In this document: positions 42,185-64,000 of the stretch, in pieces
How positions within the stretch are numbered: the first letter of the stretch is position 1
How the letters are laid out: every line of letters begins with the position of its first letter
Source of the DNA: a virus
Length of the DNA stretch: 64,000 nt
IMG/VR virus record: IMGVR_UViG_3300036781_000838
Location: 31,135-95,134 of that record
Strand: one strand, 5' to 3'
The notes under the pieces: model-generated
Told to the model about the DNA's origin: nothing
The model's input: only the letters and a program-made list of their open reading frames with translations
Database searches by the model: none
Program-made: the position numbers and the translations under genes

Positions 42185-42186
42185 TG

Positions 42187-47180: not shown

Positions 47181-47206
47181 AGTGTTATTGTTTTGTTGAG
47201 TTTATA

Positions 47207-47833: not shown

Positions 47834-47837
47834 ACAC

Positions 47838-48344: not shown

Positions 48345-49276
48345 CTGTCAAGGATTTTCATATTAGAAAAATCTGCTGTCATGGCAGCAATCAAATTTGG
48401 AGCACCATCCCTTGCTTTTATAAAATGCCAGTAGAGATCGTTTTCTTCACAAGCCAATTTATTCGGACCGTACGTATTGGGTGCGAAATTTAGTAGTGCG
48501 GGCCTATGGTTTACCATCAATGTATCCGAACACTGGTAGACGGCATCAGAACCAAATACACAGCTCTTATCTGGATAATTGAGGATGCTCTTAGGTATCC
48601 TGCGGTCTTTATCTTCGATTACCCGGTTGAGCTGCGTGAGTGGAATTTGGGTAACAGGCAATTCCTTTTTTAACTCTATCATAGCGTCAGCCAGGTTATA
48701 GAGCATGGGAAGATGACTTAATTCGTTTTCTTCCTTTTTGAATAAGATGGTGTGGTCGGAGATGACAAAGAAAGGGACCCGCATTTTTTCATAGAATGCT
48801 CTTACGAGGAACTTGTATTGTCGAACGGTTTTCGGGTGCTCTACATAGTATATCGGATACCTGCCTAATTCATTTTTCAGGTCAACCTTTATCATCTCGA
48901 ACTTCTCATCGGAAAGCGTTAATCCTTTTGCCGACAGCAGCTCATCATTTTTGATGTTGTGCCGGCCAATAATGTTTCGAATTACGATTTGTCTTGATGG
49001 CATTTCCATATTAAAGGAAAGAACCATAAAATTCTGGTCAGGATTGAGGTCAAATAGTTCCCGTTCCAACTGGGAAGCTATTAGTGTTTTGCCTGATGAA
49101 CTCATCCCTCCAAGGGCAATTATCTTTTGCCACTCGATGCCATCAAGATGGGCGTCATTAAATTTTTTCCACGGCGTCTTGATGGATTTTATTAATCCTT
49201 GTCGCCGCCCGTCAATATATTTTAATGCTTCGTCTACCGCCTTATCTACGCGAATTAGCTCGTCAACTGGACTCAT
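48341..49276 (-). CDS. dnaB: DnaB-like replicative helicase (motor domain only)
   Basis: Walker A GMSSSGKT, FNMEM, ISDH, TQLNR, GSDAVYQCSD, KARDG. Confidence 0.88.
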   Translation of the reverse strand: MSPVDELIRVDKAVDEALKYIDGRRQGLIKSIKTPWKKFNDAHLDGIEWQKIIALGGMSSSGKTLIASQLERELFDLNPDQNFMVLSFNMEMPSRQIVIRNIIGRHNIKNDELLSAKGLTLSDEKFEMIKVDLKNELGRYPIYYVEHPKTVRQYKFLVRAFYEKMRVPFFVISDHTILFKKEENELSHLPMLYNLADAMIELKKELPVTQIPLTQLNRVIEDKDRRIPKSILNYPDKSCVFGSDAVYQCSDTLMVNHRPALLNFAPNTYGPNKLACEENDLYWHFIKARDGAPNLIAAMTADFSNMKILDR

Positions 49277-49470
49277 GATATCATTTCGCTGGCTTTTTCC
49301 TGTGCGTGGCGTATTCCGTCCTGGAGGCCGTATAAATAACCCCGTTCCCTTTCCATCTCAATCAGGATGCGCAGGGTTCCCCGGGTTATCCCTCTTATCT
49401 CTATGTCAGCCGGTATGTAGGCACATAGGGGTATTGTAAACTCTTCGTAGAGTTGATCTAACTCGTCCAT
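49273..49470 (-). CDS. Small hypothetical protein
   Basis: Overlaps the dnaB start; first ORF after a promoter. Confidence 0.55.
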   Translation of the reverse strand: MDELDQLYEEFTIPLCAYIPADIEIRGITRGTLRILIEMERERGYLYGLQDGIRHAQEKASEMIS

Positions 49471-49501
49471 AAGTATTACAATGATTTTGCTTGGGAGGAG
49501 T

Positions 49502-49564
49502 GTAAAGGTAGAACTTTGTTCCTATTCTACAAACAAAAGGTGAAATTAATATCTTATTCTACAA
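49502..49564 (-). promoter_or_regulatory. Bacteroidota-type promoter with two TATTCTACAA boxes
   Basis: On the - strand TTTG-19 nt-TACCTTTA; boxes at 49523 and 49555. Confidence 0.6.
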
Positions 49565-49653
49565 ATTATGTTTTTTGAGGATCATAGGCATTATCGCCTG
49601 CCATGGCTATACCAATTAGTCGCAGTTTGTAAATGACTTGGTAATGTCTGATT

Positions 49654-50223
49654 TTATAAACCAACTACGAAGAAGGTTGTTTTACGGACTGGGAAAAGTT
49701 CCCTTACTTTCTTATCCAGGACATTAGGGTGTGCAAATGCAGGATCTGTCATTTTAATCCAGCAATTTTCCCGTTCCAGGTGGAATCCTACGATTTTGTC
49801 AATATCCTCGCCGCTGGCGATGACATCTCCAATTCTAAATATTGCATTATCGTGATATCGCCTAATGGAGCATGGCTCATAACGGTTGTCAGGGGACTGG
49901 AGATAGGACTTTGTAGCCCCATAATAGCTGGTTTCACCATTGGTGCCACCGTACCAGCCTTCTTTTAGACGGGGAATAACAAAACCTGTGACTTTATCTC
50001 TAAAAGATCTGATTTCCCATTTCAGGCAGATACAATCTTTCTTCTCCGATGGAACGATTTCTCTACCGCAAAGCGTGCAATTTGATACGACAAGTTCCTC
50101 CCAATCGGTGCTATTTTCGATTACCCAAGCAGGAATAGAACCCATGTTCCAATAGAAGGAATGACCGGGTAATTTCACTTCGACCGCTATTCTACCCAAT
50201 GTTTTATGCTTAAATTGTCTCAT
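49654..50223 (-). CDS. Hypothetical protein with CxxC...CxC motif
   Basis: ORF track. Confidence 0.55.
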   Translation of the reverse strand: MRQFKHKTLGRIAVEVKLPGHSFYWNMGSIPAWVIENSTDWEELVVSNCTLCGREIVPSEKKDCICLKWEIRSFRDKVTGFVIPRLKEGWYGGTNGETSYYGATKSYLQSPDNRYEPCSIRRYHDNAIFRIGDVIASGEDIDKIVGFHLERENCWIKMTDPAFAHPNVLDKKVRELFPVRKTTFFVVGL

Positions 50224-50816
50224 TATATTACATTAAATTTTGATTCGATAAGGTTCGTTTCATCGCTGGCATTTTCCAGGATGTTATCGCAAGCGGTAGC
50301 CAGCGAGGAAGTGATATTTTTTTGCTTGTCTTCCCTGGAGATGAAGTAGGACGAGTTTTGCATATATAAGTACCCTCGGGCTTCGTAGAGGTCTATATAG
50401 TCCCTGGTCGCCTTAAAAATGGTATTCCAATCATGCTCGAAGGTGTTAAAGAACCAGGTGAATTTTTTCTCTAACTCTTTTACGTTGACCCTTGCGGAGG
50501 CTCCTGATGGTAATAAACCTTTGGGAAACATCTCCCGGTAGCGGATAATATTTTCCAGTGCATCTGGTCCCAAGAGGGTTTTTCGTTGCTTTTTCTGCTT
50601 GATGGTGAATGTCAACTCTACTTCGTCGATAAGTTGAATAGCTTTCGCCGTTAATTTGTTATCCTCAGAGACCCAGCCATCTGTTTTGAGTATCCTCAGT
50701 TCCATGCTGGCATTGATGTGTACGGAAGTAGTGCTTTTGTTAAAACAAAGCATCAGATAAAACTGATTAGGAGTCACTTTGTTTTTCAGGAGGTGATTGA
50801 TCAGTTCGGAAATCAT
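50223..50816 (-). CDS. Putative replication initiator / helicase-loader-associated protein
   Basis: N-terminal winged-helix-like pattern; sits between the DnaA-like gene and dnaB; function inferred from context. Confidence 0.4.
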   Translation of the reverse strand: MISELINHLLKNKVTPNQFYLMLCFNKSTTSVHINASMELRILKTDGWVSEDNKLTAKAIQLIDEVELTFTIKQKKQRKTLLGPDALENIIRYREMFPKGLLPSGASARVNVKELEKKFTWFFNTFEHDWNTIFKATRDYIDLYEARGYLYMQNSSYFISREDKQKNITSSLATACDNILENASDETNLIESKFNVI

Positions 50817-51234
50817 CTTGGATTTTATTTAATATGCTTACGTATAGATCCCTGAAGTCAGTATCAACTTCAATCAGATCAGTCGCCCGTTGGTTGGAAT
50901 AAATTACATCGGGATGACTGCCATTCGGGTAAACATGCTCGCCTATAAGCTGTAATGAATACCCATAGTCTCTTGCTATTTTACAAAAGATTTGTTTTAA
51001 TGTAACAATTTCCCTTTTTCGGGAAGTAATTGCAATGGACGTGATAGCCAGATGCTTTGGGATGAATTGTTCTACAAGGAATTTTATCCTCGGTAGCTCT
51101 GGTCTACTAATGGCAAGGTTTTTTAACCCCGCGACTTGTACAATTACTGCCCTACCTGTTTTTTCCAAAAATGAGATTTTAAACCTATCTATCATCGAAT
51201 TACATAGATGAACCTGATATTGCTCAGTATTCAT
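50767..51234 (-). CDS. DnaA domain IV (C-terminal HTH)-like DNA-binding protein
   Basis: SRKREIVTLKQIFCKIARDYGYSLQLIG...SHPDVIYS aligns by eye with DnaA SR...RQIAMYL...SL..IG...DHTTV. Confidence 0.72.
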   Translation of the reverse strand: MNTEQYQVHLCNSMIDRFKISFLEKTGRAVIVQVAGLKNLAISRPELPRIKFLVEQFIPKHLAITSIAITSRKREIVTLKQIFCKIARDYGYSLQLIGEHVYPNGSHPDVIYSNQRATDLIEVDTDFRDLYVSILNKIQDDFRTDQSPPEKQSDS

Positions 51235-51381
51235 ACTGAATATAATTGTTTAGACAATTTGGATAATTAGACAATAAAGATGTATATTCTAAATATACAA
51301 GGTTGTAGAATAGCAAATATAGAACTACAAATTGAATTCAACACATTTTTTGTTCCACCTCACGACATTTTTTTTGAAAAC

Positions 51382-51960
51382 ATGAATGCGACTACGGCTA
51401 CCAGCCTGATAGCGTCTGTGATCACCTCGATAACGACCCTGACCGGCATATGGCTATCTGAAAAAATAAGAGCAGGCAAGAAACCGGATTTGGCTGATCC
51501 GGACTTTGAAGATTTATTGAAACCTGTGCTGGATATCATCCAGGAAGAAAGCCAGGCAAACCGGGTTTTCTTTTGGGAGGGGAAAAATGGCTCCAATACA
51601 TTAAGCGGATATCATATTAAAACATTGAATATGATGGTGGAGTCAAATGCGCAAGGGGTCCAGAACATTCGATCTGAGCTGCAGGATGTACCGGCTGATA
51701 CATTTAAACGCAATATGAAGAAACTGGCCATGGTCGATGACTATATGGTTTCTTATGAGCATTTAGAAAACGATGAATTGGCTTACCTGTACCAGGGATA
51801 CGGTATTGAAACCCTGATTGCCTTTAAAATCCGGACAAAATTCGATAAATGGACCGGTCTGCTTATGGTGTCTTTTGATAAACACCGCGAATTTTCTGAA
51901 ATAGAACTGTCCTGGTTAAAGACCCAGGCTGGCCGAATAAGTGCGATTTTAAAAAAATAA
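51382..51960 (+). CDS. Putative holin (single N-terminal TM plus GAF-like domain)
   Basis: Likely start MNATT; hydrophobic SLIASVITSITTLTGIWL; ANRVFFWE.KNG...WTGLLMVSF GAF-like pattern; first gene of the lysis cassette. Confidence 0.58.
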   Translation: MNATTATSLIASVITSITTLTGIWLSEKIRAGKKPDLADPDFEDLLKPVLDIIQEESQANRVFFWEGKNGSNTLSGYHIKTLNMMVESNAQGVQNIRSELQDVPADTFKRNMKKLAMVDDYMVSYEHLENDELAYLYQGYGIETLIAFKIRTKFDKWTGLLMVSFDKHREFSEIELSWLKTQAGRISAILKK

Positions 51961-51963
51961 CCT

Positions 51964-52536
51964 ATGAAAAACTACCTTTTGTTTGCGCTCCTTCTTGTAG
52001 GAGCAACTTCCTGTAACCCATTGCAAAAGGTCCTTCGGGATCCTGCCAAGCTCCAGGCTGCCGGCAGACAGTGGGAGAAGTCAAATCCTTGTGTTGTAGA
52101 CAGTGTAACCACCTTTTTACCCGGGAAGGAAACTGTCGTTATCGATTCTTCTGCTTACAGGGCTTACCGGGATAGCATTTTAAGCCAAAAATTGATTGTT
52201 TTAGGCCCTGATTGTGCCAGGTATCAGCATCTCTTTGACAGCCTTTCCCGAAGAGCGCCAGTGGTTATTACAGCTTTAAAAACCTTCCACGATACCTTGG
52301 AGGTTGCAAAGCGCGATATGCGACACGAAAAGATCCTGGGCGACTCGGTTGACTATTACACCGGCCAAACCATCCTCTTTAGGGGAGAATTTAATGAAAG
52401 TCAGCAGCAACTTAAAGAAAAAGCCAACGAACTGCTGAAAGCAAAGGCAAAATTTATTCTATGGGTGACTATCCTGCTAATTGTTCTGGTAGGGTCCCAT
52501 ATACTTCGGTCTTATATCAAACTCCCTTTCCTATGA
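51964..52536 (+). CDS. Putative unimolecular spanin
   Basis: Lipoprotein signal MKNYLLFALLLVGATS-C; coiled coil; C-terminal TM FILWVTILLIVLVG. Confidence 0.68.
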   Translation: MKNYLLFALLLVGATSCNPLQKVLRDPAKLQAAGRQWEKSNPCVVDSVTTFLPGKETVVIDSSAYRAYRDSILSQKLIVLGPDCARYQHLFDSLSRRAPVVITALKTFHDTLEVAKRDMRHEKILGDSVDYYTGQTILFRGEFNESQQQLKEKANELLKAKAKFILWVTILLIVLVGSHILRSYIKLPFL

Positions 52537-53045
52537 TTACTATTAATGATGCCTGTATTCGCTTTATTAAGATACAGGAACAATTGGTACTTAAAGCCTA
52601 CCATGGGTCCGCTGATGCTCCTAATATTTATACCATTGGTTACGGAACTATTGTATACCCACCCAATTATATGAAGGGAAGAAGGGTTCAGCCGGGTGAC
52701 GTAATTACCGCTGATCAAGCGGAAGATTTTCTCCGGTATGAGGTAAATCTGAAAGCTGAGCTGATCGATCCTTATTTAAGGGACGATTTGACGCCTAATC
52801 AATTTGCCGCCCTGATTTCGTTCACCTATAATCTCGGGGAAGGCGCCTTGAAACAGTCCCATCTTCGGGCAAAAGTAAATGCCAACCCCGCAGACCCGTC
52901 AATTTTCACTTATACTCTCGCCGGTAACGGCCTTGCAGTGCCTGATAGCTGTGAATTTACCAAATGGTGTTACGCCAATGGTGTCATCGTCAATGGGCTA
53001 ATTAAAAGACGGATGCTGGAAGCAAACCTCTATAATTCGAACTAA
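52533..53045 (+). CDS. Endolysin, GH24 lysozyme
   Basis: Start MITIND (ATGA overlap with the spanin stop); E...AY...D...TIGYG, QFAALISFTYNLG, GLIKRR..E. Confidence 0.92.
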   Translation: MITINDACIRFIKIQEQLVLKAYHGSADAPNIYTIGYGTIVYPPNYMKGRRVQPGDVITADQAEDFLRYEVNLKAELIDPYLRDDLTPNQFAALISFTYNLGEGALKQSHLRAKVNANPADPSIFTYTLAGNGLAVPDSCEFTKWCYANGVIVNGLIKRRMLEANLYNSN

Positions 53046-53083
53046 AGCGCCTGGCTGGTTGGCGACAATAACCAGTTTATCCT

Positions 53084-53527
53084 ATGAGTAATGTCTATAT
53101 CAGACCCGGTTTTTGGGTCCGAACAGTTGAAGCCGTTAAAGGCGCCCTGGATATCCGAGCTGTAGTCAGGGAAATTCTGACTGCGATAAATGTGCCTTAC
53201 AGTGATTCTTGCTGTACTCCGGATGTAAACACACAACCTGTTCGGTTTAATGCCAGTTCTTCTTCTGCAGAGCATTTTAATGGAACTTCCTGGGTCGCTT
53301 TTGCAACCGGAGGCTCTGTTGGTCCTGGAACGGTAGGCGGAGTCGTTCCCCAGGCTATGATGTTTGACTCGCTTACTGCGAATATTAATGCCAAGGCGCA
53401 ATTTCAGGATGCCCCAGCAGCTGCCAATTCTCCTGGCTCTCCTGGACAAATAGCTTTTGATGCAGCCTATTTTTACCTATGTGTGGCAACGGATACATGG
53501 ATGAGGGTTGCTATGGCCTCCTGGTAA
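53084..53527 (+). CDS. Putative minor virion/fibre-associated protein
   Basis: C-terminal PGSPGQIAFDAAYFYLCVATDTWMR module of a kind common in phage fibre proteins. Confidence 0.45.
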   Translation: MSNVYIRPGFWVRTVEAVKGALDIRAVVREILTAINVPYSDSCCTPDVNTQPVRFNASSSSAEHFNGTSWVAFATGGSVGPGTVGGVVPQAMMFDSLTANINAKAQFQDAPAAANSPGSPGQIAFDAAYFYLCVATDTWMRVAMASW

Positions 53528-53542
53528 TCGCAAAAGGAGAGA

Positions 53543-54247
53543 CTACCAGGTTAGATGCGCCTGGTAGTTCGATCCTAAAATGGTGTTTACCTTCGTGAAC
53601 AGTTCCTGATGGTCCCATGGTTTACCGGTGTGGGCCATATCTGCCGGATGTTCGATAAGCATCTTATAATGGTGGTCCCCAATCAAATCTGAAAACCCAG
53701 CGGCATGGTCACCCAAAAAGATAAATACCAATCCCCGATTTTCGTAATTGATCGTGTCAAGAAGGTAGGTTGTAAATGGTTTCCATATATCTAAATGAGA
53801 ACCAGGGCTACCAATTTGACAAGTAAGGGCCGTATTAAGAAGCAAAATCCCTTGGTTTGACCATCGTTTCAGATCCACCTCTCTTCCATAGGTTTCCGGT
53901 AACTCAGTTTGAAGTGCATTAAATATCCGCCTGAGCGCAGGTTGTTCCTTCCCGGTTAAGCTACAGGAAAACGGTATACCGTCGGCGATCCCCAATTGAG
54001 GGTACGGATCAGTTGCAATAATGACCACTTTGAGTTCATCGTATGGACACTGCTCAAAGGCAGTTAACAGATTTCGAAGAGGAGGGGTGAACCTTTTTCC
54101 GATTTCTACCTGGGCGACCAAGTGGGCTATTATTAAATCGAAATCGCTTGAAAGTAAGAATCCTTTGAGCTTATTACTCCAACCGGAGGGCTTTAGCATG
54201 GCATAGAGTTGGTTTTTTACTTTTTCTATATCAATTACAGGTGTCAT
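53543..54247 (-). CDS. ung: Family 1 uracil-DNA glycosylase (atypical motifs)
   Basis: KVVIIATDPYP, GIPFS, QGILLLNTALT, EHP. Confidence 0.85.
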   Translation of the reverse strand: MTPVIDIEKVKNQLYAMLKPSGWSNKLKGFLLSSDFDLIIAHLVAQVEIGKRFTPPLRNLLTAFEQCPYDELKVVIIATDPYPQLGIADGIPFSCSLTGKEQPALRRIFNALQTELPETYGREVDLKRWSNQGILLLNTALTCQIGSPGSHLDIWKPFTTYLLDTINYENRGLVFIFLGDHAAGFSDLIGDHHYKMLIEHPADMAHTGKPWDHQELFTKVNTILGSNYQAHLTW

Positions 54248-54282
54248 GTTTTGACAGGATTATTCATGAATAAAGGATAAAA

Positions 54283-54549
54283 ATGGAACAAGTTGAGATA
54301 ATCAAACCAGGTGCTGTAGTGAATATTGCTATAGGAGATTCATATTATGGGAATCTTCAGGAGCTGACCGTATTTTATTCAAAAATGGTATCGCCTGAAG
54401 AACTGGCGTTACAGGTTAATAATATAAAAGAGAACAAACCATTATCCGAATGGGGGCATAACTTTAAAACGCTATTGACCCTCATCAATGAGGTAGAGAG
54501 CCAGGCAAAGGCCCAAAATCTGACCGAATTAGTTACCGTCAGTGCTTAA
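54283..54549 (+). CDS. Hypothetical protein, divergent from ung
   Basis: ORF with A-rich leader. Confidence 0.6.
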   Translation: MEQVEIIKPGAVVNIAIGDSYYGNLQELTVFYSKMVSPEELALQVNNIKENKPLSEWGHNFKTLLTLINEVESQAKAQNLTELVTVSA

Positions 54550-54560
54550 TTTTCTTACTT

Positions 54561-54740
54561 TTATAGCTCATCCTTTATGCCCTTTCGCACAAATTCTTCC
54601 AGCGACATCCCTTCGGGGTATTTGGATTTAGAATCTGTTATATAGAATGCCTGCAATTTCTCCGCTATATTAAGGCAGATAGTGAAAAGCTGATCGTCGG
54701 TGTATTGAATTCCGAATGTTTCATCATCATTAGTGCTCAT
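54561..54740 (-). CDS. 59-aa hypothetical protein (not in ORF track)
   Basis: Manual translation MSTNDDETFGIQYTDDQLF...GIKDEL. Confidence 0.45.
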   Translation of the reverse strand: MSTNDDETFGIQYTDDQLFTICLNIAEKLQAFYITDSKSKYPEGMSLEEFVRKGIKDEL

Positions 54741-54799
54741 AACTGATTGTTACCTAAATAATGAGGCAATTTAAAGAATACGGTTAATTTTGCCCTGAA

Positions 54800-55225
54800 T
54801 TAATTGTAGTGTTTGCAGGTCGGGCATTTGATATGTACCATACTCAAGTCATGAATTTGGTTATCATAGATAGTAATTTCCTCGTCATCAAACTCTTGTT
54901 GGTCTATCACCCAATCCGCTTCTGGTGATAACTCACCCACAATTAGGTAATAATCTGGATCCTTTATAAACTTTTCAGGTTCTCCTCCGATTTTTAGCCT
55001 GCCCCAACTGCCAGAAGCGGTTTCAAAAGCAACATGATCCCCGATGGACAAACCTGCTTTATCTCTGCTTAGTACCAGGAATTGCATATGTTCCTCCCGC
55101 TCTTGTTTATGGATTTCCAGGTCTTTCAAATACTGATGAGGAAAGTCAGTATCGTATGTATAATCATGAAGGTTGGGTGCTGCCCCCTTGAATATAGAAA
55201 TCTGTTTGGCGAAATATTTTTTCAT
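54800..55225 (-). CDS. Hypothetical protein
   Basis: Likely start MKKYF; ends with CPTC. Confidence 0.55.
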   Translation of the reverse strand: MKKYFAKQISIFKGAAPNLHDYTYDTDFPHQYLKDLEIHKQEREEHMQFLVLSRDKAGLSIGDHVAFETASGSWGRLKIGGEPEKFIKDPDYYLIVGELSPEADWVIDQQEFDDEEITIYDNQIHDLSMVHIKCPTCKHYN

Positions 55226-55229
55226 TTTA

Positions 55230-55688
55230 TTAATATTGCGCTTCGGTAATTTCGGATCCAAGATGTTCCGCTTGTTTATAGATGCTGTCTAATGAAATAG
55301 AGACCTTTTCGAATTTGGAATTTATCGCCAGAGAATACCCGTTGATATAACGTGATTTCTCATTTCCAACGTGTATCCAAATGAAAACCTGCCCAGGTTG
55401 CAAAATGGATGCAATGGTTTCCGGGAATCCAGGTAGCTCTTGCTCTTCGTCCATAATGACTGGGGCTGTACCTTCTTCCCGCATGATTATTTCCAATATG
55501 GCAACTTCTTCCTCGGTCTCCGGAGTGAATACGCTGTTTACATCCCCATCTTCGCCATTTGCAAGGAAACATACATAGTTTTCTTTTTCAACTATTGCAA
55601 CGCCATATATACGTGCAAATAGTTTAGCCTTCTCTTTGTCAATTACCCGAATATAATTACTCCGGCCTTTTCCATAATAATTAGACAT
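55230..55688 (-). CDS. Hypothetical phage protein
   Basis: ORF track. Confidence 0.6.
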   Translation of the reverse strand: MSNYYGKGRSNYIRVIDKEKAKLFARIYGVAIVEKENYVCFLANGEDGDVNSVFTPETEEEVAILEIIMREEGTAPVIMDEEQELPGFPETIASILQPGQVFIWIHVGNEKSRYINGYSLAINSKFEKVSISLDSIYKQAEHLGSEITEAQY

Positions 55689-56127
55689 TTGCGTCCATTT
55701 TGTTTTTGATTAATTGTAGGGCATATATAAATCCATCCAGGGCATCGTTCGGAATTTGTAGGCGGCAACGTGCCAATCCTTTGGTATTCATCGGAGTCAG
55801 TGAGACAGTCTGTTCTGTCAACGACTCCAGGATCTCTACCCCTATCATTCGGCCACTACCATTCCTACCCACATAAGTTGTTTCCTTTTTAAACAGAATT
55901 ACAGGTCCCATTTTATTTTGTTTTGCCCAAGCCTGGGCTGATTCATGTTCACAATAGAGCTTCCCTTTTTTATTGATATCGGCTACCCGTTCATCGGAAA
56001 TATTCTTTACACTAATTAGGCTAAAGCAGAAATAGTTTTCTGTAACACCTGGCCTTCCGCGATAAATGATTACCTTATTTCCGTCATGTAGTAATATGGT
56101 TTTATATTTTCGATAGTAAGAAGGCAT
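55681..56127 (-). CDS. Hypothetical protein
   Basis: ORF track. Confidence 0.55.
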   Translation of the reverse strand: MPSYYRKYKTILLHDGNKVIIYRGRPGVTENYFCFSLISVKNISDERVADINKKGKLYCEHESAQAWAKQNKMGPVILFKKETTYVGRNGSGRMIGVEILESLTEQTVSLTPMNTKGLARCRLQIPNDALDGFIYALQLIKNKMDANV

Positions 56128-56158
56128 TTTAATTTAAAAATTGATTTAAGGTTGCTCT

Positions 56159-56518
56159 CTATTCATCACTTTCCTGATCATTTTTTTCTTTAAGTAGTTC
56201 GGCAATATCTTCAGGGTCAACTACTTCAATCTCCTGTACGTCTTCTTCAGGGGTCCTGGGCACTTCTGCAATAATATATCCCAGTCGATTTATGAAGTGG
56301 AAGCCACTAACCACGCTAGGTACAGAACCATCTCCATCGAGGACTGTCCAGATGGACAAGGGATCCTGTTTCTCGACATATTCAAGCTCTTGGCCATATG
56401 TCTCATACATAAAATCATTAAATGCAGCAGATTCAACCAGGTGATTCCTTTGCGGACTGAATTTCTCCTCAAACTCGGTCCAGGTTAATTGTGTGTATAG
56501 GTTTTCCTTCTTTTTCAT
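56159..56518 (-). CDS. Hypothetical phage protein
   Basis: ORF track; IWTVLDGD...GFHFINRLGY motif. Confidence 0.6.
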   Translation of the reverse strand: MKKKENLYTQLTWTEFEEKFSPQRNHLVESAAFNDFMYETYGQELEYVEKQDPLSIWTVLDGDGSVPSVVSGFHFINRLGYIIAEVPRTPEEDVQEIEVVDPEDIAELLKEKNDQESDE

Positions 56519-56522
56519 GGTA

Positions 56523-57176
56523 TTACCCTTTAAGGATTTCCTTTTTTAATTGTTGTAATAATATTTTTGGTAGTGAGTCACTTTCGACTCCCTGCAGAGT
56601 ATTTATGGCAGCAGCAACGATTTCGGCATTTAAATCAATCCATGCACCGATTTGGGCAGTCGGATATTTGGGTATGTTGCAAAGCTCAGAAGGTGTCGTA
56701 ACCATCCACTTTCGGCAACTCATAGGTCGTACCGGGTAAATGGTGCACAAATTATCCTTGGATAAGAAAGTGCAGGTTGCAAGGGCAGGAGTAAAGGCCA
56801 GTTCTGTTTTGGGAATGGTGCTTTGCAGCAATAAATACGCCTGGTTGATGACGATATTGTTTTGTTTACAGAAATCAATAATCAATTCAACCTCCATAGG
56901 CGTCACATCGACGTTCATCCGGCAACAGTGGGCACATCCTTTATAACAAGAAATCTGTTGATCTTCCCTCAACTCTGCCATGAGTTTGTCGATTAGTATA
57001 TAGGAAACAGTGAGAACGGTGTGTTTTGTCTTGTCTCTTCGTTGCAGGTCTTCAAAAGTTTGCAATTGTTCGACTATCCTTTCGGCTACTTCCTGGAGAC
57101 TATTTTCTTCCGGATATGCCTCGATGAAATTGAGTATTGTTGAGGTCAGTGCGATATTCACAATTCTTTTGTCCAT
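56523..57176 (-). CDS. YkgJ-like cysteine-cluster (Zn/Fe-S) protein
   Basis: CYKGCAHCC...CTFL...CTIYPVRPMSCR. Confidence 0.82.
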   Translation of the reverse strand: MDKRIVNIALTSTILNFIEAYPEENSLQEVAERIVEQLQTFEDLQRRDKTKHTVLTVSYILIDKLMAELREDQQISCYKGCAHCCRMNVDVTPMEVELIIDFCKQNNIVINQAYLLLQSTIPKTELAFTPALATCTFLSKDNLCTIYPVRPMSCRKWMVTTPSELCNIPKYPTAQIGAWIDLNAEIVAAAINTLQGVESDSLPKILLQQLKKEILKG

Positions 57177-57196
57177 AATTGGTTATTTGAGCGGGA

Positions 57197-57535
57197 TTAT
57201 TTTTTCTTGAGAGGTTCAAAATTCTCAAGACAAACAAATTCAATCCCGGGGTACGTTTCCGCGACATGATTTCGTTGTAAAACGTCATATGCTTCCGCAC
57301 AGATCCGGTATTGAACTATTAATTTGTTGTTTACAGATAGCTCCAGGTGCATCTTCCAGAAGTCCGGTGATAAGCTTGCGCAAAAACAGCGCAGCCGTAT
57401 TTCTGCTTGATATTTACTGTTTTTTCGGAAATACCATCTTTTCCAGGCTTTAATTTGAACGTAACAGGAGGCTAACTCAAATTCATATTCACCATCAATG
57501 GCAACCATTTTTTCACCATCAAATATTCGTTTCAT
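57197..57535 (-). CDS. Hypothetical protein
   Basis: Likely start MKRIF, coupled to the upstream small ORF. Confidence 0.5.
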   Translation of the reverse strand: MKRIFDGEKMVAIDGEYEFELASCYVQIKAWKRWYFRKNSKYQAEIRLRCFCASLSPDFWKMHLELSVNNKLIVQYRICAEAYDVLQRNHVAETYPGIEFVCLENFEPLKKK

Positions 57536-57663
57536 TTGGCTTCTGCTTGAAAATGTATGTGACAAGTGTCGCAGTGCTGGGACATTCTTAAATCAAACCA
57601 GCAGCCGCAAAATTTGCACTGGTGCCACACTTCATGGTTAAATAGCCGCATTATTGCTTTCAT
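57532..57663 (-). CDS. 43-aa zinc-ribbon protein (not in ORF track)
   Basis: MKAIMRLFNHEVWHQCKFCGCWFDLRMSQHCDTCHIHFQAEAK; ATGA overlaps at both ends. Confidence 0.62.
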   Translation of the reverse strand: MKAIMRLFNHEVWHQCKFCGCWFDLRMSQHCDTCHIHFQAEAK

Positions 57664-58052
57664 TGTAAGGATAGATTTACTTTTTGACCAATATCAATGG
57701 CAGCATGGATGGCTAAATCAAGCTCATCGTAGCTACAGTCACCAAAACTTTTACAAACCAGCGATTCTTTTTCAGAATGCCGATGCGTAAAGCACAAGCC
57801 AGCTTTTTCCTTTACCAGGTATTTCATAATAGCTGGATCTTCCCCTATGTGATTGGCCAAGGCCCGGATCATTACGTGGACCTTGGCCAATTGACTAAGT
57901 AGACCATTATCGTTTATTGACTCCATAAAAACCTCTATGGTGGTCCCTTCCCCGATTTTGGACTTAAATTCAGTGAACTGTTTTTCTGTCTTTGGGTTAA
58001 CAGGAACCAGCTTGCCGCTTTTTTTACTGAGCTTCCCGTAGAACGAGATCAT
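57660..58052 (-). CDS. NinB/YbcN-like recombination accessory protein, putative
   Basis: SQLAKVHVMIRALANHIG...MK...KSF..CS..EL pattern. Confidence 0.45.
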   Translation of the reverse strand: MISFYGKLSKKSGKLVPVNPKTEKQFTEFKSKIGEGTTIEVFMESINDNGLLSQLAKVHVMIRALANHIGEDPAIMKYLVKEKAGLCFTHRHSEKESLVCKSFGDCSYDELDLAIHAAIDIGQKVNLSLQ

Positions 58053-59365
58053 AGTCGGACCATTTTTGTGGTGGGTAACGCATACGATTTGACCGGATTT
58101 TCCAAGAATTTGTAATGCCTGAACGGGAAGCCCGAATAGCCGTCTTCTATATGTGAAAAAAAGACTACCGATCCGTTGTAGATGTATAATTCCTTATCCG
58201 GGTGTAGGCTTTTGATCCAGGTGAGCTTATTGTAAATTTTACCCTGAAAGATATAGTTGATTTTATGCTGCTCCAGTGACCTGCACGCTTTATCCACCCA
58301 TAGTTCCATCTGGGTACCTTTTAAACAAGCAATATGAATCTGGGATTTTTGACCTGCAAACTCATATAGAAGAGACCTTCCGAGCTTTTGGTGCAGGGTT
58401 TCGGTGTTACTTTCATACGAATGGAAAATAACTTTGTGCAGTCCCTTGATGGTCACGCCTGCCTGGACACAATTTACTACCGCCATGTGGCCCTCCGTAG
58501 ACTCTTTAAACTGTGCCAGAACCTCTTCTTCCTTATTTTTGGAGTGATAGCTTACACTGGAAAGTTGATCGGCTATATCAGTTCTAAGGGTGTATATGAG
58601 CAGCTTATCTGTTTCGAATTTCTTTATTAACCGCTGGGTATAGTTGAGCAGTGTAGGCGAATTGTACAGGAAATTAGTGCGCAAGGACATATACTTTTTG
58701 AATATAGCTGTCCATTTACCTATTTCCTGTGAATCACCATCTTCCATGGCCAGGAGCTTCTTCGCTTCGGCTTCCACCATCTGCTCTGTATAATGGGTAT
58801 ATACCGAGTCTTCCGTTCCATAGAATGTTCTGCCAAACTGTTCAAAAGGCATTGCGTCGCGCTTATCCAGGTCAATATAATGGACAAATATTTCGTAGTC
58901 TTTTACCAGTTTGTCTTTTATCGCATCTGCGATGGTATAGGTGAGTCCGACCTTCCAGTTTAATAGGGTTTCGAACTTTTTCTTTGTCTTATCGCTTAGT
59001 GTACCGGTTAACCCGACTCGCTTGCGGTAAGTTATTGTGCGCAGTGAGGCTATTTGATTTGCCGACTGGCATAATTGGGGTTCATCTACGATAACAAAGT
59101 CAAAATATCGATTTCTATACTTATGCAGGCTGTTTTTGGTGGTGAATGTAATATTGGTCGATAGGGGGATAAACTTCATTAATTCTTCCTCCCAGCTCTT
59201 CTTGACGTCGAGGAGTGGATAAACGACCAATACGGAATCTCCTGCTTCGATGGCTTTAAGGGCCACCCTTGTTTTACCAACTCTTATTGATACCAGGAGT
59301 ATAATGTCTCTTACAGTCAGTACATGCGCTGCCATTTTATCCTGGACCTGGTCTCTAATGTCCAT
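58049..59365 (-). CDS. Superfamily 2 helicase
   Basis: GKT, VIVDEPQ, GLTGT, QKLGR. Confidence 0.8.
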   Translation of the reverse strand: MDIRDQVQDKMAAHVLTVRDIILLVSIRVGKTRVALKAIEAGDSVLVVYPLLDVKKSWEEELMKFIPLSTNITFTTKNSLHKYRNRYFDFVIVDEPQLCQSANQIASLRTITYRKRVGLTGTLSDKTKKKFETLLNWKVGLTYTIADAIKDKLVKDYEIFVHYIDLDKRDAMPFEQFGRTFYGTEDSVYTHYTEQMVEAEAKKLLAMEDGDSQEIGKWTAIFKKYMSLRTNFLYNSPTLLNYTQRLIKKFETDKLLIYTLRTDIADQLSSVSYHSKNKEEEVLAQFKESTEGHMAVVNCVQAGVTIKGLHKVIFHSYESNTETLHQKLGRSLLYEFAGQKSQIHIACLKGTQMELWVDKACRSLEQHKINYIFQGKIYNKLTWIKSLHPDKELYIYNGSVVFFSHIEDGYSGFPFRHYKFLENPVKSYALPTTKMVRL

Positions 59366-59463
59366 ATATATTATTATTATATCATGCGTTGAAAATCATC
59401 GAACCGCTTGGCGAGTCGTTTAATAAAATGATAAAGCCGGCTGGCTAAACGTTTCATAGGCTA

Positions 59464-59880
59464 TTAGTTTAAGCGAGAATCTGCCAACCCAAGCTCCATG
59501 GCTTTTGAAGGGTGTTCATTCACCCACCGGTGGCAATTGAAGCACAAGACTATCCAGTACCTGGTGTCCAGGTAAAGGGAGCCGTTCCTTCCTTTTTTAT
59601 GTTGAATGGTGAGTGTCTCAGGGTCGTACCATGTACACCCCTCTAACCTGGCAATACAAGATGGGTTGTGCTGTAGAAATTCCTTTCGGAGCACACTGTA
59701 TTGCTTGTCCTGGATAATGCGTTTTTCGGATCTCGGATTTATTGTTTTGGTTGTAACAGTTCTGGGAGTTTGGGTTTTTATTTCAGACCAGCACCGTTGA
59801 CAGTATTTTAATCTTCCCTCACTTTTCCAAATCGCCTGCTCGCTGTTACAACCATCGCAATGTTTTAATTTAGTTAGCAT
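59464..59880 (-). CDS. Zinc-binding HNH-like nuclease
   Basis: CDGC, CQRC, C...C, QHKKGR, LCFNCHRWV. Confidence 0.65.
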   Translation of the reverse strand: MLTKLKHCDGCNSEQAIWKSEGRLKYCQRCWSEIKTQTPRTVTTKTINPRSEKRIIQDKQYSVLRKEFLQHNPSCIARLEGCTWYDPETLTIQHKKGRNGSLYLDTRYWIVLCFNCHRWVNEHPSKAMELGLADSRLN

Positions 59881-60082
59881 CCACTTCCTGCAGTACGGGT
59901 TCTTTTACCGTTTCTTTTTCTTTTTTGGAGATGGTCACTTCGCCGGTACTGTTTACGCTGACTACAGTCTTGACCTCAACGTCGCCTGAAAAAATTTGAT
60001 TGAAGAACTCTCTCTCAAGATTTGTTTCAGGAGCCAACGTTAAAAGATTTGTAGTGCCGGTAACTTTAAATTCATACTTCAT
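59870..60082 (-). CDS. Hypothetical protein
   Basis: ORF track; coupled overlaps. Confidence 0.55.
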   Translation of the reverse strand: MKYEFKVTGTTNLLTLAPETNLEREFFNQIFSGDVEVKTVVSVNSTGEVTISKKEKETVKEPVLQEVDAN

Positions 60083-60648
60083 TCAGCGGCTGTTTTTAGG
60101 TTGAAGAATACGCGGGGCAAAATGCCTTGTTCAATCAGCTTTTTGGCAATATCTATTCTCGATATCCCCAATTCTGCAAAGGATTGATAATTTGTCAGCG
60201 CATTATTGGTATAGTTCTTTGTTCGCTCGATGATGCTTTTTTTGAGAAATGTTGACTTGTGGAACAGGGATAGCAGTAAATCATCGACTTCCTTGCTAAC
60301 TATCGACTGCTTCCATTCATTGAGTACCCTTTGCGCGCGCTTGTGTAGATTTTCGATCTTAAGTTTGTCTTTGAAACTCATTGTGGCGATTTCCTTATCC
60401 GTATACATAGACAAACCGTGTAATGCATCTTTGTAAAGCCTATTCTGATAAGGGGAGAACACATCGCTTTCAAAAACGAGTGATGGTGTCCTATCCTGGT
60501 AGGATTTACCTTCGAAGCTGTTGCCATGTAGTTGTAAATCCTGGATCTGGTTCGACTCGTACGGCAACGTGAAGTGGTGTTTGGAATCTGTATAGTACAC
60601 AGTTACGCTCTTCTCATTACAATGAGAAGTTTTGTTTGGATTTGCCAT
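60079..60648 (-). CDS. Hypothetical phage protein
   Basis: ORF track; first gene after the promoter/box cluster. Confidence 0.6.
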   Translation of the reverse strand: MANPNKTSHCNEKSVTVYYTDSKHHFTLPYESNQIQDLQLHGNSFEGKSYQDRTPSLVFESDVFSPYQNRLYKDALHGLSMYTDKEIATMSFKDKLKIENLHKRAQRVLNEWKQSIVSKEVDDLLLSLFHKSTFLKKSIIERTKNYTNNALTNYQSFAELGISRIDIAKKLIEQGILPRVFFNLKTAAE

Positions 60649-60725
60649 TATTCTACAATTTATGGGGCTGTAAAGGTAGTATTTAATTCTATTCTACAAA
60701 CTATTCTACAACTTTTATTCTACAA
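60649..60725 (-). promoter_or_regulatory. Promoter with four TATTCTACAA boxes
   Basis: Boxes at 60649, 60690, 60702 and 60716; on the - strand TTTG-18 nt-TACCTTTA. Confidence 0.65.
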
Positions 60726-60727
60726 TT

Positions 60728-60758
60728 AAAGGGGAGATGAGTGGTCATCCCCCCTTTT
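60728..60758. terminator. Terminator-like hairpin
   Basis: AAAGGGGAGATGA-gtgg-TCATCCCCCCTTT. Confidence 0.6.
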
Positions 60759-60785
60759 TGCTCATAAATAATTCGCCCGGGGATA

Positions 60786-61232
60786 CTATAAAGTAGCAGT
60801 GCCGGCGAGTTCTTTTTTGGCTTTTTGCGCTGCACGGATAGCCTCGGTGTTGTTGTGGGCGATCAGCACGTCGGTATCTTCCATATTGGTCGTATAAAAG
60901 GCCGTCCTGTAGATAGGCTGGTCATCCAGGGTACACGTGATACCAGAGTCACCCGCCATTTTCATATCCTGCATGGGATTGAGCGGATTGGGCGCCGTCA
61001 GTGTTTCTTTGATCACAATTTTACCTTCCAGGGGCCTGCCCAAAGTGTAACCCAGCTCCTGCAGGTCGGCAACGCGCCCCCGGATCAATGCTGATTTGGT
61101 GCGGGGCTGGAGCCATCCATTAATGAATTCCTGGGAGGTCTGCTGGACACGGATATAGCCGTAATCGGGGTTATTTGTGGAAGCTACCACCACTAAGCCA
61201 AGTTCATTGGCTGTCACTATTACTTTTGACAT
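60786..61232 (-). CDS. Hypothetical phage protein
   Basis: ORF followed by a hairpin. Confidence 0.62.
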   Translation of the reverse strand: MSKVIVTANELGLVVVASTNNPDYGYIRVQQTSQEFINGWLQPRTKSALIRGRVADLQELGYTLGRPLEGKIVIKETLTAPNPLNPMQDMKMAGDSGITCTLDDQPIYRTAFYTTNMEDTDVLIAHNNTEAIRAAQKAKKELAGTATL

Positions 61233-61322
61233 AAATTTTGATTAAAAATGGAGTGTGTGTTAATTGATTTACTGAGTTGATTTACAAGTCTGAGCGGGTT
61301 AGACCAAGCCTTGTACTTCGGC

Positions 61323-61553
61323 TTAGTCTTCTATAACATATTCCTCCAGTTTCTCTGATATGGGGATATCAGGAAGTTCAGGAAGTCCTTTTTCGGGCGC
61401 TTCAGTGCGTTCAAGCGCCGATCCCCTCCAGGGGGATTCGATTTCTTCACCGTGGCCGGTGGCTATGAGGTATTCTATATCTTCATCGGTAATGCTGGCC
61501 CATTGTGCAAAAGTCAATTCTACGGTTTTGCCTGTCGAAAGTTGGTATAACAT
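61323..61553 (-). CDS. Small acidic hypothetical protein
   Basis: Likely start MLYQLSTGK. Confidence 0.55.
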   Translation of the reverse strand: MLYQLSTGKTVELTFAQWASITDEDIEYLIATGHGEEIESPWRGSALERTEAPEKGLPELPDIPISEKLEEYVIED

Positions 61554-61835
61554 AGGTGTTTGGATTTTTAGAGTTACTAAAATACAAAGCACCTTTGTTC
61601 TACAATTAATCAGGGAATCTTTAGAGGATTATATGGCTATGAATATTGCGGCCGGGCACTTTTTTGGTACCTCATCCTGCCTTTCCAATAGGCATTCGTT
61701 TTATTGATCTGTTCCTGTTTTTGGGATAATTGTTCCTTTAACCTCAAATTTTCAGTTATTAATCGTTTCCGCTCTGAAAAGATGTAGTTAAACCAGTTCA
61801 AAAGTTTCATGTAAGGGTTCTGAAGGTTTAAAATG

Positions 61836-61865
61836 AAAAAAGGGTAGCAGATTGCTACCCTTTTT
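61836..61865. terminator. Bidirectional Rho-independent terminator
   Basis: AAAAAGGGTAGCA-gat-TGCTACCCTTTTT, perfect stem. Confidence 0.75.
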
Positions 61866-61886
61866 CTAATGTGGGAAGTAGTATTA

Positions 61887-62387
61887 TTAAAAGATTATCT
61901 CAAATTTTCCATTTTCACCCATCGTAAATGATTTTGCACCTTCTACTTGTACGAAAGATCCTTCTGGAATCTGAAGTGGTGTGCCATTAATAAAAAGGAT
62001 GTTGATATGTTTGCCAGCGTTCGTTGTTGTTGACTTTCGTGATCCTGCCGGCTGTCCGACGTTACTTTTTTGAGAATTCTGATTGTTAGGTGTTCCGGAT
62101 GGATTAGTAGGGGGAGTGCTTTTATCTTTTTGTTCTGCACCATTCTTTGAAGTTTGAGGTAAATTGCCTCTTACAGATGGAACAATTACTCCTGCCTCAC
62201 GCAATAATTTTTTTTGATAATGTACCGTAGATATAGCGACGCCAAAATGCAAGGCCAATGCTGCTGGGCGAACCTTGTTTAAAACCATTTTTTCAAATTC
62301 CTTTTTTTGATCATCGGTCCAATTGCCACCAGAAACTTCTGTTTGCTGTACCTTTCTCGCTGTTTTTTTTGCAGATTTCGCTGTCAT
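61887..62387 (-). CDS. HTH DNA-binding protein
   Basis: WTDDQK...PAALALHFGVAISTVHYQKK HTH pattern; likely ATG start (MTAKS). Confidence 0.6.
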   Translation of the reverse strand: MTAKSAKKTARKVQQTEVSGGNWTDDQKKEFEKMVLNKVRPAALALHFGVAISTVHYQKKLLREAGVIVPSVRGNLPQTSKNGAEQKDKSTPPTNPSGTPNNQNSQKSNVGQPAGSRKSTTTNAGKHINILFINGTPLQIPEGSFVQVEGAKSFTMGENGKFEIIF

Positions 62388-62450
62388 TTGGAGTAAATAT
62401 TTAGTCGCCCTCAATTAGAGAATAAAAGTACAACATTTTGTAGAATTAAA

Positions 62451-62628
62451 TGGCCCCGGGCCAAAAATTTCTTCAGTTTTCGCGCTATTTGTAGGTTTAT
62501 TTTTTAGTAAAATTTACTTTATGTCATTTGTACATTATAATGCTGTACTACTTTTAGTTATTGACTTTTAAGTACTTATACCCTTGTATCGGAGTGCTGA
62601 ACGGACAAATGAACTTTTGGCCCCGGGC
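62451..62628. repeat. Two copies of near-palindromic TGGCCCCGGGC (62451-62461, 62618-62628)
   Basis: Exact 11-bp GC-rich repeat in a very AT-rich intergenic region beside the recombinase gene. Confidence 0.6.
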
Positions 62629-62716
62629 AAATGGAAACTGTATTCTATTATTCATCAATATAGATATAATCTACTAATAATTGTCCAAATAAATATTGGG
62701 TACAGTTTTTGAACTG

Positions 62717-64000
62717 CTAACTGGTTGCAGTGGTCCGTCGTATGGGGATGCTTTTCTTGTCTCCCATCACCTCAGCATAGATATTTAATAATACCGTCGC
62801 ATCCTTATGTCCTGATAAGGCTTGAACGCTTTTTATGTCCATGCCGTCGCGAAAACACCTGGAGCAAAAGCAGCTACGAAAAAAATAAATGCTTCTGGCT
62901 TCCAGTCGTAACCCTTTTAATACCGCTTCAAGCACTGTTTCATTTAACGCTCTGTCATCACATGCTACCCCGTTAGGACTCAAAAAGACGAGTTCGTCCG
63001 GATCCCGGTCCTTACATTGTACCAGGAGCATTCTTTCCAGCGATGAATTTTTGTGAAAAGGTAATTCCCTGGAATCTTCCATTTTTGTTGCTTTCATCAC
63101 CCTGTATGCTGCAGCTGTTCCCTCGCGCGTACGTGCGAGGGCCTGGTCAATGGTAATTATCCTGTTTTTAAAATTGATTTTTTTAACCTGCACGCCGATG
63201 GCTTCAGCAGGGCGTACCCCGGTTTCAGCCAGGAATAAAAAAATGGGGTAGTAGTGGGAATGATTATAGCGGTGACTTTCTTTATGCACAAATTTATCTG
63301 TGCGTATAGCGTTCAGGATATTTTCTACATCTTCATCGGGCAAGATTCTGTGCAGGCTTATTTTTTGATCTGTTTTCCTTCTGCCTGGAACATCTTGCAT
63401 CGGATTATCATCGATACGCTTTTTTCGGACCATCCAGGCGCAAAAATCATTGAGGACCAACTTTCGGTTGTTGAACGTTTTTGGTGAATAGCCCATGTTC
63501 TGGAGCAGCTGGGGCATATTATCTATCGTTACCGGAATTTCCTCCTCATCAATGATAACTGATTCTCCCCAATTTTGTACCATGATAAGGGTCCAATGGT
63601 ATAGATCCTTATCCAGGCTACGACCGGTCGTTTTCAAGTACTCCTTTAGAGCGATATGAACTATTAACGGCTGTTCTACAGAAGGAGGAATATATTCTAC
63701 AACCTTTGGGATAACCAATGGTTGCGTCCGGGATGGGGCTATGGTTGTATCCGTACTGCGCTGTCGGATCATTTCCTTGTACCGGGCTTGCGTATTATCA
63801 TGCGTGCCCATGGAAATGTCGAGTTCTATTACCTTGGAAATTTGCTTTTCCAGGAGGGCCGTTAATGTCTTTTTAGGGGGAAGTGTGAGGTATTTTGGCT
63901 CACCCTGGTAGCGGTATTTGAACCGTCTTGTTGCGCCTAACTCTTGAAGGGAAACGCTTCCTTTGGAAGCCCTTTTTCGTGACTCTTTTCGTGTACCCAT
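62717..64000 (-). CDS. Tyrosine recombinase / integrase
   Basis: TGVRPAE (R), ATK (K), YFFR (HxxR variant), SGH, NIY (catalytic Y); SPKTFNNRK...NPM core-binding domain; the ATG coincides with the window edge, so the start may lie further out. Confidence 0.9.
   Translation of the reverse strand: MGTRKESRKRASKGSVSLQELGATRRFKYRYQGEPKYLTLPPKKTLTALLEKQISKVIELDISMGTHDNTQARYKEMIRQRSTDTTIAPSRTQPLVIPKVVEYIPPSVEQPLIVHIALKEYLKTTGRSLDKDLYHWTLIMVQNWGESVIIDEEEIPVTIDNMPQLLQNMGYSPKTFNNRKLVLNDFCAWMVRKKRIDDNPMQDVPGRRKTDQKISLHRILPDEDVENILNAIRTDKFVHKESHRYNHSHYYPIFLFLAETGVRPAEAIGVQVKKINFKNRIITIDQALARTREGTAAAYRVMKATKMEDSRELPFHKNSSLERMLLVQCKDRDPDELVFLSPNGVACDDRALNETVLEAVLKGLRLEARSIYFFRSCFCSRCFRDGMDIKSVQALSGHKDATVLLNIYAEVMGDKKSIPIRRTTATS

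Follow-up and report, generated by a model that had tools for sequence, protein, structure and literature searches.

A tyrosine integrase and the probable tRNA-Leu(CAG) integration site of a distant crAss-like phage in a Chitinophagaceae genome

We analysed a 64,000-nucleotide stretch of viral DNA (IMG/VR record IMGVR_UViG_3300036781_000838, positions 31,135 to 95,134; "the window" below means the whole of this stretch), which ends in an open reading frame (ORF) for a 427-aa tyrosine recombinase (Int, gene int). This ORF very probably encodes the integrase with which a distant crAss-like phage of 138.8 kb inserted itself into a tRNA-Leu(CAG) gene of a Chitinophagaceae chromosome. The window corresponds to G000:C20:267445-331444, reverse strand, where G000 is the host genome, assigned to a Chitinophagaceae bacterium (6.17 Mb in 51 contigs; a high-quality draft that is 100% complete by marker genes, with 3.26% estimated contamination), and the phage is carried by its contigs C20 and C50. 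The initial annotation had proposed that the recombinase marks a prophage end or an integration-capable relative of the crAss-like phages, a proposal that both host junctions and a 47-bp repeat now support. The integration mechanism is classical; the unusual features are the group to which the phage belongs and how its attachment site (attP) is built. Coordinates are collected in Table 1.

Host junctions of the element

It had been suggested that the DNA past position 64000 be inspected for host genes and for attL/attR repeats, and both were found. A tRNA-Leu(CAG) gene, attL, lies 80 bp upstream of the int ATG, just outside the window, and beyond it come host genes that are syntenic in genomes of the same genus, other species of which keep two ORFs upstream of attL and the tRNA-Leu gene in the same order. 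The host ORFs before attL, named from their translations, are miaA-like, CCA-adding-enzyme-like, hexapeptide acyltransferase-like and EamA-type transporter-like, the last two being those with synteny. The matching attR is a second tRNA-Leu(CAG) gene, the only other one in the genome, located 138.8 kb away on the adjoining contig C50. The two genes are identical over 47 nt (47/47, tRNA positions -1 to 46) and divergent beyond. The contigs of the host genome average about 52% GC; on C20 there is a drop at 267 kb, from about 0.55 to about 0.40, and the low GC content persists until the contig ends at 373,651. On C50 the stretch between 387,890 and the contig end (420,430) is low in GC, and the part below 387,890, with TetR, MFS, pyrophosphatase and histidine-kinase genes, is host-like.

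The right ends of C20 and C50 share an exact 141-nt overlap, neither end overlaps any other contig end, and an ORF for a 90-aa secreted protein bridges the joint. In the joined sequence the two tRNA genes are direct repeats, 138,772 bp apart from core to core, and the enclosed DNA has a GC content of 0.422. A search of the genome found no third copy of the att core, and a model with tandem elements was rejected on this ground. Genome searches with PF00589 and PF00239 identified a single tyrosine recombinase inside the att-bounded element, this Int, and no serine recombinase. The element thus has host DNA on both sides, direct att repeats, an integrase inside and a restored target tRNA, as an integrated prophage has. 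We infer the insertion from the tRNA halves (see below) and the left flank, since the right flank is not conserved in relatives and none of six same-genus loci presents a complete empty site; the C50 right flank is unmatched beyond about 50 nt in blastn and tblastx.

Could the host-phage junctions be chimeras of assembly or binning, the phage being free or episomal? The draft state of the genome, its estimated contamination and the contig break within the element are in keeping with such an error. However, two independent contigs, with 267 kb and 388 kb of host DNA, meet the phage exactly at tRNA-Leu(CAG) and in the orientations of attL and attR, both tRNAs have the hybrid make-up that recombination predicts, and the protein cluster of the integrase includes a 1.58-Mb contig from another assembly. 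We consider this explanation extremely improbable.

Origin of the tRNA halves and structure of attP

The 3' half of the corresponding tRNA in relatives of the host resembles attR more than attL (35/39 against 27/39 positions in G001, 34/39 against 26/39 in G007), which indicates that the 3' half at attR is the host original and that at attL is derived from the phage. The host terminator hairpin after attR is kept in one relative. Since the attL 3' half comes from the phage, attP must have held a complete tRNA-Leu(CAG)-like gene. The attL and the attR copies can each be folded into a tRNA-Leu cloverleaf of type II. In the acceptor stem of the attL hybrid A6 is mismatched with C67 (A6.C67), where relatives pair G6 with C67 or A6 with T67, and the phage 3' half therefore descends from the tRNA of a different host. 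A palindrome followed by a T-run after the attL tRNA looks like a terminator carried by the phage.

Directly upstream of int, attP thus comprises an entire tRNA-Leu(CAG)-like gene together with what looks like a terminator of the phage. In the mechanism that we propose, the N-terminal domain of Int would bind arm repeats, and Int would exchange strands in or near the anticodon loop, at tRNA positions 33-41. The attL product comprises the host promoter, the host 5' half, the phage 3' half and the phage terminator, followed by int, and the attR product comprises phage upstream DNA, a 5' half, the host 3' half and the host terminator. Both products are full-length tRNAs.

The reconstructed attP contains three copies of TGGGTACA with 11-bp spacing, 93-115 nt upstream of the tRNA, and two more at 71 and 82 nt downstream of it, the first of which lies just beyond the window whereas the second overlaps the int ATG. 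These repeats are found at both phage ends, and copies that are 139 kb apart in the prophage are adjacent in attP. They are candidate arm-type Int-binding sites, and as direct repeats on both attP arms they resemble arm-type sites. Compared with the lambda and Tn1549/Tn916 systems, attP here differs in that one arm repeat overlaps the int start codon and in that no IHF-, Xis- or Fis-type sites were identified in it.

An inverted TGGGTACA is located 13 nt past the int stop, and int thus has one of the three window copies at either end. The inverted copy may be another site to which Int binds or a chance occurrence, 1.6 copies being expected in the window. Members of the integrase family begin with MGT or carry repeated LGT (three in one of them). 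Such N-termini would fit arm repeats (GGTAC) embedded in the 5' coding end of int throughout the family, which suggests autoregulation.

The integrase

The int ATG forms the final three bases of the window, the open frame continues upstream of it for only 5 codons more, and the MGT start is also present in aligned homologues. The identification of the ORF as a tyrosine recombinase in the initial annotation was borne out by PF00589 (E 5e-18; score 65.9 bits, curated cut-off 27.1; residues 220-411) and by integrase families of PHROG (E 3.6e-31). The gene was also correctly described as co-oriented with the phage genes at 300 bp from them, the measured distance to the next gene being 302 bp. The AlphaFold2 model (pLDDT 78) shows an N-terminal three-strand sheet with a helix (residues 17-63), a disordered linker (83-110), a core-binding domain (114-192) and a catalytic domain (222-412). 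This three-domain layout is common to the integrases of Tn1549/Tn916 (PDB 6emy/6en0) and lambda (1z1b), from which Int differs by a sequence identity of only 13-22% and by a tyrosine in place of the first catalytic histidine throughout its clade. The Tn1549 integrase is the best sequence match (E 3.5e-9) and ranked first in a Foldseek search with the model (6en0, E 1e-10), in which the alignments to full-length lambda Int span 415-428 columns. Int is therefore predicted from the model to be a heterobivalent (arm-binding) tyrosine recombinase of the lambda/Tn1549 type. Its N-terminal domain goes together with 3+2 copies of TGGGTACA here and, in a homologous element of the host-family genome G177, with 2+2 copies of TAGGTACAA, to which binding is predicted.

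The proposed catalytic residues, as judged from alignment, are R263, K303/K306, Y372 (replacing the usual His), R375, H398 and Y408. The other residues (R263, K303, K306, R375, H398 and Y408) are invariant in 13/13 aligned members of the integrase family, and so is the tyrosine at the position of Y372. It had been noted earlier that the usual HxxR motif reads YFFR, and the alignment agrees, placing Y372 on the His of HAMR in the Tn1549 integrase. Y408 lies 10 residues past H398 and aligns one residue off the mutated Tyr of the Tn1549 integrase. Because the tyrosine is kept by all 13 aligned family members, the YFFR reading is a trait of the clade and not damage to the gene.

Some phage tyrosine recombinases are invertases or resolvases, and the replacement of the catalytic His by Tyr would be in line with such a job, integration then being made by something else. 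We regard an inversion or dimer-resolution role as very improbable, because Int has its domains arranged as arm-binding integrases do, three members of its family flank junctions in this very tRNA and remoter ones follow tRNA-Pro, tRNA-Asn and tRNA-Met genes, and no invertible segment bounded by inverted repeats was seen beside int.

Table 1. Positions of the features discussed. Simple numbers are window positions; prefixed ones refer to contigs or loci of the sequences named.
Feature	Position	Strand	Remarks
Whole window	1..64000		entirely within the prophage; early/replication genes on -, giant virion proteins on +
Helix-turn-helix (HTH) protein	61887..62414	-	175 aa; N-terminal helix-turn-helix, small C-terminal beta region
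Spacer between int and HTH gene	62415..62716		302 bp; holds inverted TGGGTACA
Inverted TGGGTACA	62697-62704	+	in the spacer
Tyrosine integrase	62717..64000	-	427 aa; = G000:C20:267445-268728 (+)
TATTCTACAA box	63693..63702	+	single copy within int; in lineage-specific disordered Int linker
TGGGTACA repeat over int start codon	63992..63999	-	ATGGGTACA = Met-Gly-Thr; second of two copies 11 bp apart
TATTCTACAA positions in the window	20844, 33819-33882, 37858-37887, 49523-49564, 51303, 60649-60725, 63693		
attL, tRNA-Leu(CAG)	G000:C20:267280-267364		
attR, tRNA-Leu(CAG)	G000:C50:387805-387889	complement	
47-bp identical block	C20:267279-267325 and C50:387890-387844		
Cellular-type cargo	C20:362000-373650 and C50:419100-420430		L003:7007-18278, L006:18732-19712
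Phage end near attR	C50:387890-407500		L007:7945-18194, L006:5896-6996
Element in G177	C16:39647-63147		L038/L039
Junction in Ga0206931_1020	L125:9840-10010		metagenome contig
tRNA-Met fragment in G433	L110:812-842		tRNA positions 31-61
tRNA-Met fragment in G431	L113:2663-2693		tRNA positions 31-61
tRNA-Ser fragment in G438	L114:2706-2731		last 26 nt of the tRNA

Relationship to crAss-like phages

The virion proteins relate the prophage to the crAss-like phages. TerL matched 128 phage records, nearly all of them crAss-like (24-28% identity among the matches listed), and the portal protein matched 137, almost solely crAss-like. The capsid protein matched 32 records, with three full-length matches (Lbo-JY46, csAssE-Sib and a gut contig) and partial ones to the Flavobacterium FpV4 group. 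A giant virion protein with an RNA polymerase of the crAss type is present as well: the C-terminal 1223 aa of the 4522-aa ORF matched 138 phage records, almost only crAss-like, and among the matches of the RNA-polymerase region are a cr128_1 protein named "putative RNA polymerase" and a phi14:2 gene whose annotation reads "structural protein". The 4522-aa ORF gave no match to PHROG at 1e-5. Among the crAss-like matches are gut "cr" genomes, Bacteroides phages of the crAss001 type, IAS virus, Cellulophaga phi14:2 and the Flavobacterium FpV4 group. Across the four proteins the identity to crAss-like phages is 21-32%, and the phage would, from these comparisons, form a distant crAss-like branch within or beside the order.

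Large opposed gene blocks and a Bacteroidota host are shared with the crAss-like phages (PhiCrAss001/002, phi14:2, the FpV4 group, csAssE-Sib and Lbo-JY46), while the genome of 138.8 kb is larger than most. The best isolate match, for both capsid and portal, is Leptolyngbya phage Lbo-JY46, in which no tyrosine recombinase was found. The record of this closest isolate (PP438436.1; L041), labelled with the cyanobacterium Leptolyngbya, includes more than 20 tRNA genes in an array. A cyanobacterium is an unexpected host, the other members of the lineage being tied to Bacteroidota.

A sequence box shared by int and the phage

The initial annotation had noticed an exact TATTCTACAA box inside int and had treated it as weak evidence that the gene belongs to the phage. 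The box is indeed there, and its weight turned out to be greater. The window holds 15 copies against 0.22 expected, a number reached in 0/100 shuffles, and 23 of the 29 copies in the 6.17-Mb genome lie inside the 139-kb element, on its C20 and C50 parts alike. Because of this distribution the copy in int is a real mark that the gene belongs to the phage. The stretch of the Int linker that holds it is a gap in aligned homologues and is disordered in the structure model. Most copies are intergenic, clustered by 2-4 and on the strand opposite to the genes. The box is likely to be a phage promoter or operator element.

Integrase homologues and the point of crossover

Only 18 close members of the integrase family were found, the best of which is 52% identical to Int. 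No relatives of the integrase were found in IMG/VR, and a search of a phage collection gave only five distant matches (25-27% identity). Two homologous integrases use the same target gene as Int. One of them, 49% identical, is found in G177, a genome of the same family as the host, in a 23.4-kb low-GC element that is bounded by a 55-bp repeat corresponding to tRNA-Leu(CAG) positions 33-85 plus 2 nt. This element and the prophage have the integrase alone in common; nine of its ORFs are without a Pfam match. In the attP model for G177, TAGGTACAA is present four times in the corresponding two arms, twice over the int start, and the orientation of the tRNA core relative to int and the arm repeats is the reverse of that in the prophage. 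The other homologue, 51% identical, is encoded on the metagenome contig Ga0206931_1020 (L125), after a 5' part of tRNA-Leu(CAG) that reaches no further than position 41, and TGGGTAC is repeated twice at the integrase ATG. The L125 element supplies no 3' half, so the working tRNA in that host would have to be the copy at its far end, with both promoter and 5' half provided by the element. Remoter family members (24-38% identity) lie directly after tRNA-Pro, tRNA-Asn or tRNA-Met genes.

The identity blocks of the three elements (the prophage, G177 and L125) overlap only at tRNA positions 33-41. Based on this overlap the crossover would be placed in or next to the anticodon loop, that is in the loop and two further bases. 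In 2002 Williams reportedly sorted tRNA-targeting integrative elements into sublocation classes, some of which cross over in the anticodon loop. The prophage shares with anticodon-loop elements a tRNA target, an int gene beside the junction, direct-repeat junctions and restoration of the tRNA. It differs from them in that attP is a whole tRNA-like gene with a heterologous 3' half (26/39 identical to that of the host), in that integration gives two chimeric full-length tRNAs, and in that the identity block covers the 5' half, whereas it usually runs from the loop to the 3' end. A further difference is that the core of the prophage is inverted relative to int and the arm repeats in comparison with that of the G177 element.

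Free relatives and the int-HTH cassette

The capsid protein has a counterpart in 1 of 400 other genomes of the host family (30% identity) and in three contigs of metagenome-assembled genomes (about 60%). In IMG/VR, 68 contigs encode a capsid protein that is 57-62% identical; ten of these are 107-128 kb long, and the 16 longest were compared with the prophage. A tyrosine recombinase is present in 5/16, and two of the five are complete genomes with terminal repeats (127 bp in G433). Neither a serine recombinase nor the plug domain of TonB receptors was found in any of the 16. A homologue of the HTH protein is encoded directly after int in all five int-bearing relatives, and the HTH gene was not found in six near-complete relatives that lack int. 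In G433 and G434 the order is integrase, HTH homologue and homologues of the early genes of the window, and from the HTH gene through the virion module 43 ORFs of G433 are collinear with the prophage. In the int-less G439 the genes that flank the cassette slot are adjacent, with no cassette between them. The genes that precede the slot in relatives (a 122-143-aa gene and dUTPase) have no homologue in the prophage. The HTH protein has no Pfam family and its AlphaFold2 model has a pLDDT of 55.7, too low for a search by fold; from its motif and gene position it is a candidate lysogeny regulator, either a repressor or an excision factor.

Orthology between the integrases of these relatives and Int was rejected, since tblastn gave no match at 1e-5. 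Beside int, G433 and G431 carry a tRNA-Met fragment that is 90% identical, and G438 carries a tRNA-Ser fragment that is 100% identical; both kinds of fragment are candidate attP sites for other targets. Non-orthologous integrases in the same slot, each with the HTH gene, together with the tRNA fragments lead us to conclude that the lineage carries an exchangeable cassette of attP, int and HTH gene. It is tempting to go further and propose, though we hold this only tentatively, that the environmental lineage switches between temperate and non-temperate life through gain, loss and exchange of this cassette of about 2 kb (a tRNA-derived attP, an integrase and the HTH gene) at one position, with integrases of unrelated subfamilies and with Leu, Met and Ser tRNAs as targets. 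In the prophage, attP would be a whole foreign tRNA gene, so that lysogeny yields two chimeras of the host's sole tRNA-Leu(CAG), the native 3' half ending up behind phage DNA.

These comparisons also bear on the source of the integrase, for which the initial annotation had allowed a recombinase of an unrelated neighbouring element. Int could be part of a small cassette of its own or of a neighbouring element, and not be the inserter of the crAss-like genome: its closest homologues are in unrelated elements that share the integrase only (the 23-kb element of G177, and L125), and the integrases of the related phages are of other subfamilies. But a single att pair encloses all 139 kb with no other recombinase within it, Int is 80 bp from attL and 302 bp from the gene that trails int in related free phages, int contains the phage-specific box and occupies the same slot as in the free relatives, and the TGGGTACA repeats are at both phage ends. 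The data thus do not support a foreign recombinase, and we judge it very improbable.

Cargo and the right-hand end

The sigma/FecR/SusC/SusD cluster is located inside the att-bounded element. It belongs to a region of about 16-18 kb of cellular-type cargo with 33-37% GC, which encodes an ECF sigma factor, a FecR anti-sigma factor, a SusC-like TonB receptor with an STN domain and SusD, and also a thioredoxin-like protein, an S9 peptidase, a small secreted protein, a TlpA/AhpC-like redoxin and a MauE-like protein. The cargo may be the reason why this genome is larger (138.8 kb, compared with 120-128 kb; the Plug domain was found in 0/16 relatives), and it could be a case of lysogenic conversion of outer-membrane uptake.

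The phage end near attR carries RNA-related accessory genes. These encode a Tpt1/KptA RNA 2'-phosphotransferase, a homologue of class I aminoacyl-tRNA synthetases of the Trp/Tyr type and a SLOG-family protein, as well as a radical SAM protein and a methyltransferase-like protein; further in are a second sigma factor and a cNMP-binding regulator.

Evidence against integration and state of the prophage

Several observations weigh against integration of a crAss-like phage by this Int. The join of C20 and C50 is based on the 141-nt overlap, without a contig that spans it, and the assembly contains neither an excised attP nor an empty attB contig. Gene order downstream of attR is unconserved in the relatives examined. 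The last 47 kb, made of the cargo and the C50 part, have no homologues in the complete relative G433, and one 688-aa protein of this right-hand part was found in none of the 16 relatives; we assign these 47 kb to the phage because of the att sites, the GC content, the shared box and PHROG matches. Y372 stands where the catalytic His is normally conserved, and the activity of Int is a prediction from its sequence. Finally, at such a distance from classified Crassvirales the term crAss-like applies to the hallmark proteins in its broad sense only.

The prophage may also be real but defective or domesticated, so that it no longer excises or makes virions. The continuous junction contigs, which give no sign of excision, the addition of the cellular-type cargo and the acceptor-stem mismatch in the attL tRNA are what such decay could leave behind. 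We nevertheless think it unlikely, in view of hallmark ORFs that are all open (4522, 1593 and 1278 codons, TerL, portal, capsid and DNA polymerase), an Int of full length with every family-invariant residue, att repeats that match at 47/47 positions, and the 43 ORFs collinear with a complete free relative. On this reading the prophage integrated by Int would still be competent for excision today.

Significance

For cultured crAss-like phages, the absence of lysogeny genes and of copies integrated in RefSeq genomes has been reported (PMC8042965, PMC7511551, PMC8375218), and according to reviews integrated copies are undetected in genomes of Bacteroidales. The phage described here, by contrast with those reports (PMC8042965, PMC7511551), is integrated. 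Integrases have been mentioned for some metagenomic crAss-like genomes in PMC9980608, which cites Yutin 2021, crAss-like prophages were merely suspected in PMC7886860, and two incomplete epsilon-like prophages were described in Parabacteroides distasonis and P. merdae (PMC11054128). The prototype crAssphage was termed a linear phage-plasmid in the title of Schmidtke 2025, cited in PMC12823448. The Parabacteroides traces and the metagenomic integrases (PMC11054128, PMC9980608) likewise point to integration in some crAss-like lineages, but consist of incomplete prophages or of integrase genes without resolved att sites, whereas in the present case the junctions on both sides, the target gene, the structure of attP and cassette-bearing free relatives are defined. 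In the literature searched, which covered few papers from subscription journals, we found no account of a crAss-like prophage whose att sites are resolved.

How crAss-like phages persist is an open question, and the present case offers a complete genome with its junctions, target and attP anatomy, that is, a fully resolved lysogeny in a phage group that is usually called non-integrating. The integrase clade is in addition a natural experiment in swapping a conserved catalytic His for Tyr. Induction, excision and the specificity of integration could be tested directly, provided that the strain is in culture. The presence and absence of the cassette among otherwise collinear free relatives suggests that lysogeny is modular in this group.

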